Source: Alphaproteobacteria bacterium (GTDB lineage Bacteria; Pseudomonadota; Alphaproteobacteria; GCA-2731375). From it: 64,000 bases of DNA. The notes below the pieces were generated by a model that saw nothing but the letters and a program-made list of their open reading frames with translations, did not search any database and was not told the origin of the DNA. The stretch lies in assembly GCA_965225945.1 (NCBI GenBank), contig CBDDBZ010000033.1, forward strand, positions 64,001 to 128,000, written 5' to 3'. The position numbers and the translations under genes were made by a program. Shown here in pieces: positions 14,618-24,059 of this stretch. Within the stretch, counting starts at the first letter, position 1; each line of letters begins with the position of its first letter.

Positions 14618-15099
14618 CTCTCCCTCCACCGTTTGCGTGCCGGGATCCCCTCGAAAGGTATCACGAAGTGCTCATCGCTCCGGAGCGCGCTTTACAAGTG
14701 TCGGTGGCGATGAAAAACCGCGCTTAGATGGTGATTTCAGCGACATCGGGCATCGTGGCGCTGTAGCTGCGTGGTTTGCAGGCGGGAGTTGGCTCGGCGC
14801 AGCGGTGGGTAAGTAGCCCGCCGCGGCGACCGCCAAGAGTCTGGCGGCGGCGGGCTGCTTATCCACCGCGGGCGGGCGTCTCGATTCCTGTTTTGGCTGG
14901 CTGGCGGCGGCGGTTCCGCGGACCTGACAAGGGGAGCCGCGGGAGTACACTCGGGCCGCTGAGAACGATGCGGCGCCGGCCCCGTTTGCTTGCTGGCAAC
15001 GACCGGCACCGCACCCCCCGAGCCATGCAAGGCACGACCCATATGCGCAGTATCGTGCGGGTTTGGGCGTGGGTCCACCCCGTTCTCATCGGCTGCGCG

Positions 15100-15561
15100 A
15101 TGAAGAACACCGCCCGCCTGTTCAACTGCGCCTCGTGCCATCAACAGGTGGTTCTCTGCCGGCACTGCGACCACGGCAACATCTACTGTTCACGGAGCTG
15201 CAGCGATCGGGTGCGCCGGCGATCGCAGCGCCATGCCGGGCAGCGCTACCAGAACAGCCGGCGGGGCCGTCACAAGCATGCTGAGCGCCAGCGGCGCTAT
15301 CGCGAACGCCGGCGGCGCCGGACGCCGGTGAATCGGCGCCGCGGGCAGGAAGTGACGCATCACCCTTTGACCGCCGCGCGGCGGCGTCCTGTTGTGGCGC
15401 GGACGCCGGCAGGGCGTCCCGGAACACGGCCCTTCGGGCACGAGCGGCCCGCCAGGGTCTTCCGCGGATGCGATGGGCGCCGCTGCCCGAGGCCGCCAAC
15501 GGCACCAGTTCTGCGGGCAGGCGGTCTATCCGGGGCTGCGCCCGACGGGAAAGGGGGTGAG
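15100..15561 (+). CDS. Cys-rich/Arg-rich ORF, in frame with istA (no stop codon)
   Basis: CASC..CRHC..CSRSC followed by an Arg-rich helix; reads through into the IstA ATG at 15562. Confidence 0.65.
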
Positions 15562-17067
15562 ATGACCATCGACAAGGAGACCCGCGCGGAGATCCTGCGC
15601 CTGTATCACGTCGAGAAGTGGACGGTCGGCACGATCACACGCCAGCTCGGCGTGCATCGCTACACCGTCGAGCGCCTCCTCACCGCGGCCGGCGAGCCCC
15701 GGGACGCGAGGTCGCCCAGGCCGTCGATGATCGATCCATACGTGCCGTTCATCGCCGAGACGCTGGCATCCTGGCCGACGCTGCCCGCCAGCCGGCTCTA
15801 CCAGATGGTGCGCGAACGCGGCTATCCGGGCGGCGGCGACCACTTCCGTCATCTGCTCAGCCACTTCAGGCCCAGGCCCGTGGCCGAGGCCTATCTGCGC
15901 CTCAAGACCCTTCCCGGCGAGCAGGCCCAGGTCGACTGGGGACACTTCGGCAAGGTGACGATCGGCCGCGCGGAGCGCCGCCTGATGGGCTTCGTGATGG
16001 TTCTCAGCTACTCGCGGCGGATCTTCCTGCGCTTCTACCTCGACGCCGGGATGAGCAACTTCCTGCGCGGCCATGTCGAAGCCTTCGAGGCGTGGCAGGG
16101 CGTGCCCCGCGAGCTCTGGTACGACAACCTGAAGAGCGTCGTGCTGGAGCGCCGCGGCGCCGCCATCCGGTTCAATCCCCGGATCCTCGACCTCGCCGGC
16201 CACTACCACTTCCTGCCCAAGCCCGTCGCGGTCGCGCGCGGCAACGAGAAGGGGCGCGTGGAGCGGGCGATTCGCTATGTCCGGACCAGCTTCTTCGCCG
16301 CCCGCCGGTGGCGCGATATCGACGATCTCAACGCCCAGGCCCTGGCCTGGTGCCACGGCATCGCCGCCGACCGCCCCTGGCCCGAAGACCGCTCGATCAC
16401 CGTGCGCGAGGCCTTCGAGCGGGAACGCGGCTCTCTCATCGCGCTGCCCGGCGATCCCTTCCCCGACCACGACCGGGTCGAGGTCGCCATCGGCAAGACC
16501 CCCTACGCCCGCTTCGATCTCAACGATTACAGCGTGCCGCACACCCATGTGCGGCGCACCCTCGTCGTGGTCGCGACGCTCGACGAGGTGCGCATCCTCG
16601 ACGGTGTGGACGTCATCGCCAGCCATCCGCGCAGCTTCGACAAGGCGGCCCGCATCGAGAACCCCGAGCACATCGCCGAGCTGGTCAGGCGCAAGAGCCA
16701 TGCCCGCCGCCTTCGCGGCCAGGACCGGCTGGTCCAGGCCGCGCCCAACAGCGAGCGCCTGCTCGCCGAGGCCGCCCAGCGCGGCGGCTATATAGGCGCC
16801 ACCGTCGCCGCCCTGTTGCGCCTCCTCGACGCCTACGGCGCCGCCGAGCTCGAGGCGGCCATCGACGAGGCCCTGAAGCGGGACGTTCCCCATCCCAACG
16901 CCGTGCGCCTGAGCCTGACCCGGCGGCGCGAGCTGCGGCACCAACCCCCGCCCATCCCCGTCGAACTGCCCGGCGATCCGAGAGTGCGCGACATCACTGT
17001 CCGCGATCACGACCTCGTCGGATACGACGGGCTGGCCGGCGAACCCGAGGAGGACAGCGAGCAATGA
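15562..17067 (+). CDS. istA: IS21 family transposase IstA
   Basis: N-terminal [27 protein letters not shown]; RBS AAGGGGGTG. Confidence 0.95.
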
Positions 17068-17852
17068 ACGATACCCTCATGGGCCGTGCCCGGGCGCTCG
17101 GCCTGCACGGCCTCGCCGCCCACTGGGGCGAGGTCGCCGGGCATGACTGGCCCGCTGCGCTGGTCGCCTGGGAAGAGGAGGAACGGCGAAGCCGCAGCCT
17201 CAAGCGCCGCCTCGGCGACGCCCGCCTCGGACAGTTCAAGCCGCTCGCCGACTTCGACTGGGCATGGCCGCGCCGCTGCGACCGCATGGCCGTCGAGGAT
17301 CTCATGAGCCTCGAGTTCCTCAACGAGGCCGCCAACGTCGTCCTGGTCGGCCCAAACGGCGTCGGCAAGTCGACCATCGCCGCCAATATCGCCCACCGCG
17401 CCGTCCTCGAGGGCCACACCGTGCGCTTCGCCACCGCGGCCAGCATGCTCGGCGAGCTCGCCGCCCTCGACAGCGACACCCTGCTTCAGCGCAGGCTGCG
17501 CTTCTACGCCCGCCAGCACCTGCTGGTGATCGACGAGGTCGGATACCTGTCCTACAGCAACCGCCATGCCGATCTGCTGTTCAACATCGTCTCCAGCCGC
17601 AGCCAGCAGAACTCCACCATAATCACCACCAACCGGCCCTTCGCCGAGTGGGGTGAGGCCTTCCCCAACGCCGCCTGCCTCGTCGCCCTGGTCGACCGCC
17701 TCGTCCACAACGCCGAGATCATCGCCATCGACGCCGAGTCCTGGCGCCGCAAGGAGGCCGAGGAACGCCAGAAGCAGCGCAGCGCCGAGCGCCGCCGGCG
17801 GCGAGCCGGCAAGGCCGGCGCGCAGGACCGCGGGGAACCGCCGCCGGCGTAG
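17064..17852 (+). CDS. istB: IS21 AAA+ helper ATPase IstB
   Basis: Walker A GPNGVGKS, Walker [23 protein letters not shown]; ATGA overlap with istA. Confidence 0.95.
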
Positions 17853-17854
17853 CC

Positions 17855-18751
17855 ATGGATGGTCCCCGCCTCTGGGACCGGCGGGTGCGGGCCGAGGCCC
17901 TGCGAGGCTATCCCCTCGAAGACGTCGTCCGCCGCCTCGGCTACCGCCGCGATCCCACCGATGCCGCGCGCTGGAGGCGTCCCGGATCCGTCGTCAGCAT
18001 CAACGGCTTTATGTTCTACGAACATCTGCGCGGCGAGGGCGGGGGCGGAGCGATCGACCTGGTAATCCATGCCTGCCGGTGCACCGTGCCCGAGGCCCTC
18101 GGCTTCTTCTCGGAACTGCCGTGCCGTGACCGGTTCCCGGCCGATCGCCACCCGAAGCCGCCGTGCCCGGACCGCCACTGGCCCGCCATCCAGAGCTACC
18201 TCGTCGAGCAGCGCGGCCTCGCGGATGTGCTCGTCGCCCTGTGCCGCGACCTCGGCTTGCTCTACGCCGACCGCCACGGCAACGCCGTGTTCGTCCGCCG
18301 AAACGCGGCCGGCGAGGCTCTCGGCGCCGAGATCGTCCCTGCCGCGGCGCCACGCCGCCTCGCGCCGACCGGCGCCGCCGCGCGCGGCGGCTTCTGGATG
18401 TCGTGGGAACCCGACTGGCCGAACTCCGTCATCCTCGCCAAGAACGCAATCGACGCCCTGTCGGTCCTCTCCCTCCACCTCGTCCCGGCCGGGCGCAAGG
18501 GATGCGCCGTGGTCTCAACCGGCGGCGCCACCGCAAGCCTCCCCGAATGGATCGAGGCCTGGAACCCCGGCCGGATCTTCTGCGCCTACGACGCCACCCG
18601 CCAGGGCGATGACGCCGCGGCACGGCTCATCCGAAACGACAGCAGGGTCGTCCGCCTGCGCCCTGCCCTCGACGGCCTGGACTGGAACGACATGCTCATG
18701 CGCGACCGCGCCGGCGAACCGCTCCAGATCGATGACCGGCCCCTCGACTGA
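17855..18751 (+). CDS. DUF3991/Toprim-like (primase-related) protein, catalytic residues degenerate
   Basis: GGGGAIDLV, YLVEQRGL, AIDALS, CAYDA..GD, DWNDML are primase/Toprim-type motifs; starts 2 nt after the istB stop. Confidence 0.75.
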   Translation: MDGPRLWDRRVRAEALRGYPLEDVVRRLGYRRDPTDAARWRRPGSVVSINGFMFYEHLRGEGGGGAIDLVIHACRCTVPEALGFFSELPCRDRFPADRHPKPPCPDRHWPAIQSYLVEQRGLADVLVALCRDLGLLYADRHGNAVFVRRNAAGEALGAEIVPAAAPRRLAPTGAAARGGFWMSWEPDWPNSVILAKNAIDALSVLSLHLVPAGRKGCAVVSTGGATASLPEWIEAWNPGRIFCAYDATRQGDDAAARLIRNDSRVVRLRPALDGLDWNDMLMRDRAGEPLQIDDRPLD

Positions 18752-18908
18752 ATAGCCACAGCGCGAAACAAAATCAGCCAAGCCCAAAAGCATCCCGTCA
18801 GCCAACCGCCACCGACCGCTCAAAAAGAGCACCATATAAGCGCACCCTGGAACCACCGCTAACAACAAGCGGGGCCCGAGCGGCCACCTTGGCGCCGAGA
18901 GGCGAGGG

Positions 18909-20577: not shown

Positions 20578-20639
20578 GGCACTTCCTCCCGGCGGCAATT
20601 GTTCCCGACCGTCGCGTGGAAGTCGAGTCGTCGGCCGGA

Positions 20640-21515
20640 TCATTCGGGCGCGGCGATCTTGGTGGCGCAGGCGAGCACCGCCGGCATCGGCAGTACCAGC
20701 TCCTCGCCGTGGCGGTAATCTTCCGCCTCCTCGGCGAGGGCCGCCAGCACCGCGGCCAGCACTTCGGGCGGCTGTGCCCTGAGAAGCGCGCCGGCGCGGA
20801 CCGTGCCGCCGGCGACGGCGTCGAGGATCGCCTCGGCGTCGGCGACGCGCCAAAGCTGCTGCACGATGGTGACGCGGGGGGCGTGAAATCCCGCCCGGCG
20901 AAACGCGCCGACCGCTTCGGAGGGTTCGGCGAAAAGGTAAGGCTCGGCGCCCAGGGCGAGGGGCGCGTCGGCCTCGCCGTGGCTCTGGATCGCCCGCTCT
21001 ACCAGGTCGAAGCCGACGACGAGCGGCGGCTTGGCCCAGACCGTGAAAGCAGCCCGCCCGCCCGGCCTGAGCACCCGATAGGCTTCACGAAGCGCGCCCT
21101 CGGGCCGGGCGAAATATTGCAGGCCGAAGTTGATCACCACGACATCGAAGCTGGAATCGAGATAGGGCAGCGCCTCGGCGTCGCCCTCGTCGAAGGCGGC
21201 AGCGGGGAAATTGCGCCCAGCGATTCTGACCTGGGCGGCGGCGAGGTCGATGCCGCGCGCCTCGGCGCCGCGCCGGGCCGCCTCGGCCGCGCCGTAGCCG
21301 GGACCGCTGGCGACGTCGAGCACGCAGGCGTCGCGATTGTCGCCGCCGGCCATGATCCCGACGCTGTCGAGCATCGCCCGAATGGCTTGGGTCGAGACCG
21401 CTTCGGGGTGACGGTGCCAGTCGTCGGCGGCGCGTTCCCAGCCAACCTGCTCGAAACGGCGAGAGGCCAGGGTGTCGAATTCGTGCACGGGGCGGGGCGC
21501 GGTGTTCGGGCTCAT
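20640..21515 (-). CDS. Class I SAM-dependent methyltransferase
   Basis: VLDVASGPG, GDAEALPY, YRVLRPGGR. Confidence 0.88.
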   Translation of the reverse strand: MSPNTAPRPVHEFDTLASRRFEQVGWERAADDWHRHPEAVSTQAIRAMLDSVGIMAGGDNRDACVLDVASGPGYGAAEAARRGAEARGIDLAAAQVRIAGRNFPAAAFDEGDAEALPYLDSSFDVVVINFGLQYFARPEGALREAYRVLRPGGRAAFTVWAKPPLVVGFDLVERAIQSHGEADAPLALGAEPYLFAEPSEAVGAFRRAGFHAPRVTIVQQLWRVADAEAILDAVAGGTVRAGALLRAQPPEVLAAVLAALAEEAEDYRHGEELVLPMPAVLACATKIAAPE

Positions 21516-21830
21516 CGGTGTTTCCTCCCAAGGCAAGACAATCGTCAGGGCGCCAGCGCTCGGCGCGCTTGCGGGAAGGAGAAATCGCGTTGTCGCGGGG
21601 CAAAAAATCAAAGCCGCCGCGGCGCTGCCGGGCGGCGATCAACTCGATCAGGCCACCTCTTTAGCCGCATTTCTAAAGCGCCCGCAAGCTGGTCGATCAA
21701 ATCGGCGCTAGCCACCCTCAGTAGTCCGCCTCGGGTCCCGGCGCAAGTGGAAATTCAGCGCGTCGGCGAAAAACTGGTGCGTGAGGGGGAGCGCGGTCAG
21801 AATGGGGGCCGAAGCATCGGGGCGGGGGCG

Positions 21831-22599
21831 ATGGCGATGGCGACGCGGACGATCTGGGGGATTGGCACCAGCCGGACGATCCGGGCCCATTGGGCGGCGG
21901 CCGAAGTCGGGCTCGAATACGCCGTCGAGGCGATCCGGCCCCGGACCGGTGAGACCAAGACCGCGCGCTTCACCGCCGTCAACCCGCGCCAGAAGATCCC
22001 GGTGCTGGTCGATGGCGATCTGACGCTTTCCGAAAGCCTCGCCATCGTCAACTACTTGGGCGAGAACCATGGCGATCCCGCGAGCGGCCTCGTGCCCCGG
22101 GAGGGGCCTGAGCGCGCGGCCTACGACGAGTGGTGCTTTTTCGCGGCGATGGAGCTGGATGCCACGAGCCTCTACGTGATACGTCGCCATTCCGGCCTGT
22201 CCGAAATCTATGGCCGGGCACCGGTCGCGGTGGACGTGGCGCGGGCCTATTTCGAGCGCCAGATCGCCTCGGTGGTCGCGCACCTGGGCGACGAGCGGCG
22301 CTATCTCATGGGCGATCGCTTCACCGGGGCCGACATCGTCATGACCTCGGTGCTCGGCAACGCCGAGAGCTATGAGTTCGCCCTGGACGAGACGCTCCTG
22401 GCTTATGGCGAACGGACCCGGGCTTATGGCGAACGGACCCGGGCTTATGGCGAACGGACCCGGGCTTATGGCGAACGGACCCGGGCTTATGGCGAACGGA
22501 CCTATGGCGAACGGACCTTATGGCGAACGGACCCGGGCGCGCCCCGCCTTCCAGGCCGCGTGCGCCATCAACAACCCGCCCGATCTCGGGCCCGTATAG
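21831..22599 (+). CDS. Glutathione S-transferase, frameshifted by a tandem repeat near the 3' end
   Basis: NPRQKIPVLVDG, SESLAI, GDRFTGADI; natural end YGERTRARPAFQAA continues in another frame to the stop at 22599. Confidence 0.82.
22400..22537 (+). repeat. 21-bp tandem repeat GGCTTATGGCGAACGGACCCG (4 full + 3 partial)
   Basis: Seen directly; no spacers. Confidence 0.95.
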
Positions 22600-22611
22600 A
22601 GGAGAAGCTTC

Positions 22612-23013
22612 ATGGCCCGCGCCGACCAGGTGTTTCATCTCCGCGCGCACGAGAAGACGCTCGGCTTCGCCTTCGCCGTCAGAGGCGAGACGATGCTGCA
22701 CATTTCGGGGGCCTGCGCGCTCGACGCCGACGGCGAGGCGGCGGCGCCGGGCGACCTGGGGGCGCAAATGTGGATCGTTTACGCCGACATCGCGAAGGCC
22801 TTGGCGGCGCACGGGCTCGGCTTCGCCGAGGTGGTGCGCGAGCGGATCTACCTCACCGACATCCGGGCCTTCCGCACCGCGCTCCCGATACGAGCCGAGA
22901 TCTACCGCGCCGCCGCGCCGCCGGCGGCCACCTGGGTCGAGGTCGCTGGCCTGATGCGTCCCGAATTCATGATCGAGATCGAGGTGACGGCGGAATTCCC
23001 GCGCGAGGAATAG
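22612..23013 (+). CDS. RidA/YjgF family protein
   Basis: LHISG, YLTDI, PAATWVEVAGL...IEIEVTA. Confidence 0.85.
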   Translation: MARADQVFHLRAHEKTLGFAFAVRGETMLHISGACALDADGEAAAPGDLGAQMWIVYADIAKALAAHGLGFAEVVRERIYLTDIRAFRTALPIRAEIYRAAAPPAATWVEVAGLMRPEFMIEIEVTAEFPREE

Positions 23014-23057
23014 GCGAGCTCGGCGCCGAGCCCGAGGCCATGTTTGGAAACGGAAAA

Positions 23058-24059
23058 TCACCCGCTCGGGCGCGCCTCCAGCGCCGCGACCTCGTCCGCC
23101 AGCATGTCGAAGAGGAGGGCGATCCAATGGCCCGGCACGCCCTGGGCGATGAAGACGAGGCGGCTCGAGCGGTCCTCGTCGGGCCAGGCGTCGAGCCAGG
23201 CGAGGGGATGGAGGACGTGCTGCACGCCGTGCACGATCGCCGGCTGCTCCGGGTTCTCGCGGATGTTCAAGATCCCCTTGATGCGTAAAAGATCGCGCCC
23301 GCAATTGTCGCTCAGGGTCTCCAGGAAGAGACTCAGCAGCGCCGCCGGGATCGGCTCGTCTCGGCGCAGGCAAAAACTCGATATGTCGCCGCCGTGGTGG
23401 GCATGACCGTGGGCCTCGGCCGCGAGCCAGCGGGCGAGGTCGCGGTTCGGCCGGGCCGGAGCCTCGAACAGGCGCGAGGCCGCGATATCGCCGCTCACCG
23501 CCTCCAACACGGCCGCCGCCGGATTGAGCGCCCCGAGCCGCGCGGCCAAGTCCGGCAACGCCGCCGGCGCCAGATCTCCCTTGGTCACCACCAACGAATC
23601 GGCGAGCGCCACCTGTCGCACGCTCTCCTCGTGGCATCGAAGCGTCCGGGCACCGTTGAGCGCGTCCACCGTGGCCACGACGGCGGCGATCTCGACCTGG
23701 CCGGAGAGTGCGGCGTCGGTCATCAGCGCGTGCAGGATCGGCGCCGGCTCGGCGAGGCCCGTGGTCTCCACCACCACGCGGCGAAAGGGGGCGATCTCGC
23801 CGGCGCGGCGCCGCGCCAGCAGATCGGCGAGCGTGCGCACCAGATCGCCCCGCACCTCACAGCAGAGGCAGCCGCCGGGAAGTGCCACGATCTCCTCCTC
23901 GCTGGCCTCCAGCAGGTGGTGGTCGAGGGCGATCTCGCCGAATTCGTTCACGATCACCGCCGTGTCGCGAAAGTCGGGGTCGCGCAGCAGCGCGGCCAGC
24001 AGCGTCGTCTTGCCACTGCCGAGAAAGCCGGTGATCACATGAACCGGTATCGCCGTCAT
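23058..24059 (-). CDS. CobW/COG0523 metallochaperone GTPase
   Basis: TGFLGSGKTT, NEFGE, GCLCC, ETTGLA, His-rich linker, LLRIKG. Confidence 0.92.
   Translation of the reverse strand: MTAIPVHVITGFLGSGKTTLLAALLRDPDFRDTAVIVNEFGEIALDHHLLEASEEEIVALPGGCLCCEVRGDLVRTLADLLARRRAGEIAPFRRVVVETTGLAEPAPILHALMTDAALSGQVEIAAVVATVDALNGARTLRCHEESVRQVALADSLVVTKGDLAPAALPDLAARLGALNPAAAVLEAVSGDIAASRLFEAPARPNRDLARWLAAEAHGHAHHGGDISSFCLRRDEPIPAALLSLFLETLSDNCGRDLLRIKGILNIRENPEQPAIVHGVQHVLHPLAWLDAWPDEDRSSRLVFIAQGVPGHWIALLFDMLADEVAALEARPSG

Follow-up and report, generated by a model that had tools for sequence, protein, structure and literature searches.

Insertion sequences (ISs) of the IS21 family (e.g. IS21, IS5376 and IS100) are treated as two-gene elements, which according to the ISfinder description typically measure ~2-2.6 kb; they generate target duplications of 4-8 bp, and their products IstA and IstB are a model for ATP-controlled target capture. 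In Tn7 and Tn5053-type transposons, the corresponding pair (TnsB/TniA and TnsC/TniB) is accompanied by selector proteins. The element described here lies at positions 14699-18864 of a stretch of 64,000 nucleotides (hereafter the window; positions 64,001 to 128,000 of the forward strand of contig CBDDBZ010000033.1, assembly GCA_965225945.1) from an alphaproteobacterium of the GCA-2731375 lineage. Direct reading of the sequence gives a complete IS21-family element of 4166 bp that starts with TGT, ends with ACA, and carries two genes besides istA and istB, i.e. an upstream gene for a Cys-rich protein (orf1) and a downstream gene for a DnaG-like protein with DUF3991 and Toprim domains (hereafter the cargo).

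By its core features the element is a member of the IS21 family, of which it is a variant by its gene content. It shares with the family an IstA-type DDE transposase and, directly downstream, an IstB-type AAA+ helper (both above the NCBIfam cut-offs, with overlapping genes), imperfect inverted repeats of the TG..CA type with subterminal repeats, and short target duplications of 5-7 bp. It differs in having four conserved genes in 4141-4166 bp instead of two in ~2-2.6 kb, with orf1 added upstream, the Toprim gene downstream, and a conserved left region of 400 nt. A preliminary description of the window, made from the sequence alone, had suggested a possibly undescribed IS21-derived class. In full-text searches of papers (with ISfinder and TnCentral outside their scope) no description was found of an IS21 element with these genes, nor of the related elements designated types II-IV below, but the core features keep the element within the known family.

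Element ends and amplification in the source genome

The source genome (39 contigs, 6.27 Mb) contains 19 full-length copies of the element at 99% identity, two copies that are interrupted inside the cargo gene, and a few fragments. The first 12 nt (TGTCGGTGGCGA) are common to all 21 copies and the last 12 nt (CCACCGCTAACA) to 20 of them, the exception being the copy at C34:305477, which ends in CCACCGCTAGCC. Direct repeats of 5 bp (8 copies), 6 bp (6 copies) or 7 bp (3 copies), all different in sequence, surround 17 copies, while the remaining four have no duplication, as expected after recombination between copies. Because the copies on C18 and at C37:79541 have common flanks, 16 unique sites with a duplication remain. 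With the ends constant and duplications around 17 of the 21 copies, 19 of them full-length and two interrupted, it follows that the four modules move as one unit, and the proposal in the preliminary description that a structured leader, a Cys-rich open reading frame (ORF), istAB and a primase-like cargo had transposed together is thereby borne out. Its reading of the ends (a 5-bp ACAAG duplication, TGT/ACA termini with a common motif at an equal offset, and a length of 4166 bp) was reproduced as well. Each copy is separated from the consensus by 0-15 substitutions, and the amplification burst must therefore have been recent. In 15 of the 21 copies none of the four reading frames is disrupted. 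In a congener (G002) only decayed fragments were found, at 80-88% identity.

Aligned with the reverse complement of the right end, the left end is identical at 24 of the first 40 positions. A common motif, GCGCTTA(G/T)ATGGTG (14 nt), occupies positions 22-35 of both ends, and TCGGTGGCG of the left tip recurs 49-57 nt inside the right end as a subterminal repeat.

Two types of variation among the copies affect the cargo gene. The two interruptions (C27:62269-62602 and C39:307811-308064) are unrelated inserts of ~330 and ~250 bp, and a 6-nt indel at window positions 18032-18037, which deletes two glycines of a GEGGGG run in the protein, distinguishes two subfamilies, of 14 copies with and 7 copies without it.

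Gene order, istA, istB and orf1

All four genes are located on the + strand (Table 1). The istA and istB genes overlap in ATGA (17064-17067), and the cargo gene starts 2 nt past the istB stop, in agreement with the earlier placement of a DUF3991/Toprim-like gene inside the ends. Intergenic gaps of -4 to +16 nt suggest a single operon with translational coupling.

The window copy is atypical with respect to orf1. Elsewhere in the genome (20 copies) orf1 stands alone as a 146-aa gene, the end of which overlaps the first 4 nt of istA, whereas in the window the C-terminal CxxCGRFC is lost to a 25-nt insertion that also joins orf1 to istA in frame; the Cys-rich ORF is therefore a module of its own in 20 of the 21 copies, as had been proposed, but not in the copy from which the proposal was made. 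An independent library (X4) contains the whole 4141-bp form, which is without the 25-nt insertion, as a single contig. In the orf1 protein a CxxC-x6-CxxC-x6-YCSxxC motif at the N terminus is followed by a basic helical part and, at the C terminus, by CxxC..C. Searches of Pfam and NCBIfam with orf1 returned nothing above threshold, only weak zf-MYND-like matches (best E 0.043, in 6 of 9 members), and an AlphaFold (AF2) model reached a mean confidence (pLDDT) of 57, too poor for a fold search. Its 308 homologues lack any Pfam domain and are, like those of the cargo, all unnamed.

Table 1. Features of the four-gene IS21-family element and its flanks, in window coordinates
Feature	Position	Strand	Basis and remarks
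Target-site duplication ACAAG, left copy, 5 bp	14694..14698	.	Direct reading; other genomic copies have their own 5-7 bp duplications
Left terminal inverted repeat, TGT..., motif GCGCTTAGATGGTG at 14720-14733	14699..14733	+	24/40 identity to right end; start of all 21 genomic copies
Predicted hairpin with 26-bp stem, upstream of promoter-like site	14802..14869	+	88% complementary
Sigma-70-like promoter CTGACA, 16 nt, TACACT	14924..14951	+	Consensus match; 1 found vs 0.1 expected in shuffles; transcript start predicted near 14958
Putative 5' untranslated leader, ~140 nt, nearly invariant	14955..15099	+	Predicted closing helix GAGAACG (14961-14967) / CGTTCTC (15081-15087)
orf1, Cys-rich and Arg-rich protein; runs on into istA in the window copy	15100..15561	+	No Pfam/NCBIfam family; 308 homologues, all unnamed
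Copy-specific 25-nt insertion (3 + 22 nt, nearby substitutions)	15466..15504	+	1/21 copies; absent from RNA library X4 contig
istA, IS21-family DDE transposase, 501 aa	15562..17067	+	NF033546 249.1 bits (cut-off 160); rve, Mu-transpos_C_2, helix-turn-helix
istB, AAA+ helper ATPase, 262 aa	17064..17852	+	PF01695 182 bits; NF038214 204.3 bits (cut-off 200)
Cargo, DnaG-like DUF3991/Toprim protein, 298 aa, degenerate active site	17855..18751	+	K196 for Toprim Glu; D246-A-T248 for DxD
Right terminal inverted repeat, ...ACA	18830..18864	-	Direct reading; 20/21 copies end CCACCGCTAACA
Target-site duplication ACAAG, right copy	18865..18869	.	Direct reading

Fold, active site and relatives of the cargo protein

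Two domains of the cargo exceed their gathering scores, i.e. DUF3991 (PF13154; 36.6 bits, cut-off 24.5) and Toprim_2 (PF13155; 22.9 bits, cut-off 22.1). An AF2 model built from 19 sequences (pLDDT 80) matched best, in a Foldseek search, to the zinc-binding domain and RNA-polymerase domain of Aquifex DnaG (2au3, E 1.2e-5), and further to other DnaG cores and the T7 gp4 primase (5vaz, 5w33, 1nui, 6n9x). The model therefore combines a zinc-binding-like domain with the RNA-polymerase/Toprim core fold, as in DnaG-type primases and the T7 gp4 fragment, and a profile alignment brings the cargo motifs into register with the E. coli DnaG core.

The residues on which catalysis depends in such enzymes are not retained. 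In all 18 sequences from elements with the same gene order (type I, see below) the Toprim Glu (E265 in E. coli DnaG numbering) is replaced by K, G, A or N (K196 in the window), a position that varies freely among them, and the DxD motif reads D-x-T (D246-A-T248 in the window), the last residue of the motif being D in the other architectures. No conserved Cys corresponding to the CHC2 zinc ligands is found in the matching N-terminal strands in any architecture, and the protein stops after the Toprim domain, i.e. without a helicase-binding C-terminal domain. By contrast, the Toprim Glu is kept in 25 of the 28 sequences from types II-IV and unclassified loci, and in 3 of 3 plasmid homologues. Judged from residues known in other Toprim enzymes, the type I cargo is probably a pseudo-enzyme that is unlikely to prime. 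The earlier designation as primase-like thus holds for the DnaG/T7-primase fold, but not for the active site, from which the Glu and half of the DxD are gone in 18 of 18 IS21-linked sequences. The three remaining sequences of types II-IV and unclassified loci (L089, L091 and L102, all type II and from one Paracoccaceae metagenome-assembled genome (MAG)) have G instead of Glu with the DxD kept, so that loss of the Glu is not confined to the IS21-linked clade.

Among annotated proteins, the cargo is closest to plasmid proteins labelled 'DUF3991 and TOPRIM' and to the C-terminal region of MobV relaxases (27-32% identity, 88-97% coverage). The homology to these plasmid modules extends over nearly the full length and includes the same Pfam domains; the plasmid proteins, however, keep the Glu and occur in a mobilisation or replication context, whereas the IS21 clade has lost it and resides inside a transposon. 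The wider family comprises 4184 cluster representatives at E<=0.001, many of them within large conjugation-type proteins. On a Paracoccus plasmid of 2926 bp (L113, NZ_CP067178.1) the sole annotated gene encodes a MobV relaxase fused to the DUF3991/Toprim module, which suggests that this module alone can serve plasmid replication or priming.

In a quick tree, in which the placement of the outgroup is unreliable owing to long branches, the type I cargo proteins form one clade with a long stem (approximate likelihood-ratio support, SH-aLRT, 100), while types II-IV interleave. The simplest reading would be a single capture by the IS21 lineage, followed by the loss of catalysis and by retention under weaker constraint.

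The source genome also has two solo cargo-like genes (L009 and L010, at C30:9007-10146 and C38:251-1156), which are 64% identical to the window cargo and have the same K...D-A-T state. No istAB genes or element ends are found nearby, their neighbours being a trypsin-like peptidase and UPF0236 ORFs.

Distribution of the four-gene architecture and related elements

Among 8000 scored candidates, 167 cargo homologues were found at E<=0.001, many of them on contigs of ~4 kb. A scan of one genome per species yielded 78 loci, which fall into four architectures apart from four loci that are too short to classify. Type I is the architecture of the window (orf1-istA-istB-Toprim, co-oriented), with 28 complete loci, two cut by contig ends and four remnants or rearranged loci. 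It comes from at least 10 other MAG records, with 19 complete copies in one MAG, at identities to the window of 75-80% for IstA, 80-90% for IstB, 62-79% for orf1 and 55-69% for the cargo. The search for other istAB loci with the same flanking ORFs, as advised in the preliminary description, thus returned all four genes in order in 28 of the 78 related loci. Many of the samples with an element are sponge metagenomes. A transfer across phyla is not claimed, as the records with Chloroflexota, Gemmatimonadota and Acidobacteriota titles are short repeat contigs in MAGs and may have been mis-binned.

In three further element types the cargo family likewise stands beside the ATPase gene of a DDE transposase and ATPase pair. 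In type II (24 complete and 8 partial loci) the Toprim gene comes last, after a DUF6431 ORF, an IS481-like rve/Mu-C transposase (195.8 bits, where the IS481 cut-off is 224) and an AAA_22 ATPase; its units of 4.0-4.3 kb are identical within genomes and reach up to 10 copies per MAG chromosome. Examples, with Glu and DxD intact, are L080:2857-7163, L088:2948-7105 and L100:2345-6350. The DUF6431 ORF is Cys-rich; homology between it and orf1 was considered and rejected (hhalign probability 0.1%). Type III (5 loci) has a distant transposase/ATPase pair, of which the transposase could be recognised at three loci, and its ATPase gene is separated from the Toprim gene by ~1.2 kb. At L065:1667-6591, the one locus at which this gap was examined, it encodes an AAA_25 (RepA/DnaB-like) + GntR-type protein, an arrangement reminiscent of a helicase-primase pair carried by a transposon-like unit. 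Type IV (3 loci: L069:1833-5077, L071 and L107) is built on a different IS21 (IstA ~30% identity), with the Toprim gene convergent on istB and a synteny that is maintained at 69-79% nucleotide identity.

IS21 relatives with an orf1 homologue and without the cargo were also found (two loci from G262 and one from G136), as repeat contigs of 3.4-3.5 kb whose IstA is 50-63% identical to that of the window; two of the three contigs end in ACA as here. Because orf1 is also present in these cargo-less relatives, it seems that orf1 joined this IS21 subgroup first and that the Toprim gene was captured afterwards.

Selection on the four genes

The ratio of non-synonymous to synonymous divergence (dN/dS, Nei-Gojobori) was calculated for eight diverged type I elements, and for seven in the case of the cargo (L059, of which the start is mis-set, was left out). 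The medians were 0.39 for orf1, 0.34 for istA, 0.28 for istB and 0.57 for the cargo, and all four genes are under purifying selection. For the cargo the ratio stayed below 1 in every one of the 21 pairs (0.32-0.67), significantly so in three separate pairs (binomial p 5e-5, 6e-3 and 5e-5), the sole part at 1.0 being a 13-residue linker. The cargo is therefore neither restricted to this locus (it is found at many others) nor decaying, which were the findings that the preliminary description, together with a deletion of no effect on transposition, had named as fatal to its proposal.

The left non-coding region

The 400 nt of conserved non-coding sequence at the left were aligned for nine type I elements, whose genes differ by 20-40%. 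In the upstream hairpin, pairing is held through changes on both sides in 6 of the 13 main-helix pairs; for the whole structure, the count of both-side changes was reached by 1 of 500 shuffles and the covariation score by none of 500. Both hexamers of the promoter-like site lie in conserved alignment columns. The sequence that follows is more conserved than the genes of the element, predicted helices 8, 9 and 12 being almost invariant among the nine, and it reads as a constrained 5' leader. No Rfam family matched the leader, the only match being at chance level (E 0.99). The 'structured leader' that had been proposed is thus recovered in part: the upstream hairpin has compensatory changes, but the separate ~140-nt 5' untranslated region folds only marginally better than shuffles (z -1.8). 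Contigs of four RNA runs from two studies cover the element (in one run in full); such contigs do not show transcription, start or strand, and DNA carry-over is possible.

A function of the leader as an RNA guide for targeting was considered and rejected, since one leader is present in all copies and the 16 unique sites have no common sequence.

Possible roles of the additional genes

The best explanation, to which we attach moderate confidence, is that the element represents an amplified four-gene IS21 subgroup in which the cargo is a non-catalytic helper and orf1 a regulator or assembly factor, the functions of these two proteins being inferred from sequence and model. As in the rest of the IS21 family, IstA and IstB would be responsible for the chemistry and for capturing the target. 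The orf1 protein, as a putative zinc-finger and arginine-rich nucleic-acid binder, would most likely control expression or transpososome assembly. The cargo would be a DnaG-type primase module captured from plasmid mobilisation or replication genes, whose Toprim Glu and second DxD aspartate appear to have gone in the IS21 lineage, and which would most likely act without catalysis, as a DNA- or replisome-binding helper where transposition meets replication. Candidate steps are the copy-out replication proposed for IS21 and target capture, and the cargo would raise efficiency without being essential.

The link to replication is drawn because, according to a preprint, IS21 has circular intermediates and presumably transposes by copy-out-paste-in, of which the copy-out needs replication (bioRxiv 10.1101/2023.06.07.543989). 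The same preprint presents IEE, a PrimPol-type IS-excision enhancer, as a primase-family protein whose action is tied to copy-out-paste-in IS intermediates (bioRxiv 10.1101/2023.06.07.543989). IEE thus resembles the cargo in being a primase-family protein and, by its tie to IS intermediates, the role proposed for the cargo, but IEE is an archaeo-eukaryotic-type primase-helicase unrelated to Toprim and, in the passages concerned, is not shown as encoded inside an IS.

A broader reading can be put forward tentatively, in which stand-alone DUF3991/Toprim proteins would be a hitherto unrecognised class of dedicated transposition helpers for at least two unrelated DDE and AAA+ machines (IstAB and IS481-like/AAA_22), coupling strand transfer to replication. 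The helper of the IS21 branch would then be a pseudo-enzyme that binds DNA, IstB or the replisome, and together with orf1 and the leader it might form a regulated four-part transposon instead of an IS with a passenger.

A number of findings weigh against the best explanation. The cargo is the gene most often broken among the 21 copies (cargo 3, istA 1, istB 1, and orf1 1, i.e. the window copy), and it evolves about twice as fast as istB. Relatives with orf1 exist that have no cargo, which must therefore be a later, non-essential addition. The argument for loss of catalysis rests on residues known from other Toprim enzymes, and the leader folds only marginally better than shuffles, with helices too conserved to show covariation. 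Also with respect to target choice, which the preliminary description had proposed to check by collecting insertion sites, no bias emerged: there is no target consensus at the 16 unique sites, where the duplications vary from 5 to 7 bp, and no orientation bias relative to the local GC skew (10 of 21 copies agree, in a genome in which this skew is weak at ~0.01). Moreover, orientations alternate along two complete MAG chromosomes, with 4 switches among 10 copies and 6 switches among 10 type II copies. These tests are weak.

The main rival, which is tenable if somewhat doubtful, is that the Toprim gene is a plain passenger, i.e. a plasmid primase-like gene captured between istB and the right end, the constraint on which would reflect a benefit to host or plasmid, or slow decay. 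The cargo-less relatives with the same ends and orf1, the lost catalytic residues, the highest dN/dS of the four genes, the three broken local copies and the solo cargo-like genes on C30 and C38, away from any istB, are all in line with this. On the other hand, dN/dS remains below 1 in every pair at a synonymous divergence of ~0.5, the cargo frame is kept in all but one (L059, with the mis-set start) of eight type I elements, and the gene follows istB by 2-16 nt in every lineage. The recurrence of the cargo family on three other DDE and ATPase backbones, once inverted, is also hard to explain by chance hitch-hiking.

It is improbable that the cargo is instead a working primase, which would prime the lagging strand on a replication intermediate of the element (copy-out or Shapiro-type) independently of host restart primosomes. 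The DnaG/T7 gp4 fold fits such a role, as do the retention of E and DxD in types II-IV, the type III homologue that adjoins the AAA_25 protein, and the MobV-fused homologue that is the only protein of a 2.9-kb mobilisable plasmid. However, all 18 type I sequences have lost the Glu, at a position free to vary, and have D-x-T for DxD, no member of the family has zinc-finger cysteines in the N-terminal domain, and the cargo protein lacks a helicase-binding C-terminal domain.

Very unlikely, too, is a role of orf1 and/or the cargo as target selectors in the manner of TnsD, TnsE and TniQ of Tn7, steering IstB to forks or conjugating plasmids. The case for it is one of analogy: IstB is the counterpart of TnsC and MuB, a DDE transposase and an AAA+ regulator are in both cases accompanied by dedicated extra proteins encoded inside the ends, single-stranded template is what a primase fold binds, and the origin of the cargo lies in genes linked to conjugation. 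Nevertheless, neither orf1 nor the cargo has a Pfam or NCBIfam match to TniQ, TnsD, TnsE, TnsA or TniR, and the lack of site and orientation specificity noted above, weak as the tests are, argues against a sequence-specific or fork-directed selector. Finally, nesting, a composite structure or an artefact of assembly, for which only the unusual length for IS21 pleads, can be dismissed, considering that the 21 copies share both ends, differ in their flanks and have duplications of their own, that neither an internal second pair of ends nor abutted-end (circle or tandem) junctions were found in the assembly, and that the whole 4141-bp form is a single contig in an independent library.

The family of the cargo, which occurs in four transposon architectures with catalytic residues intact in three and lost in one, offers a natural comparison for a transposon-encoded primase module, and for the question whether a pseudo-enzyme can take over the role of such a module. 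A widespread and currently active lineage with two extra genes and an invariant leader suggests layers of control or replication coupling beyond the textbook IS21. The elements are multi-copy in uncultured bacteria, many of them from sponge metagenomes, and may matter for genome plasticity there.

Other observations in the window and source genome

The source genome has a second, ordinary IS21-family element that is more abundant (~45-55 places, e.g. C38:9132-11352), the IstA and IstB of which are 31% and 35% identical to those of the window. The four-gene copies at C34:305477 and C39:328627 lie inside or beside copies of this second element.

Downstream of the four-gene element, the window contains a perfect tandem repeat at 22400-22533 (21 nt x 4.9, then 16 nt x 3.1), which encodes AYGERTR repeats and is located within a long reading frame (20616-23288) that also has a glutathione-S-transferase-like stretch.

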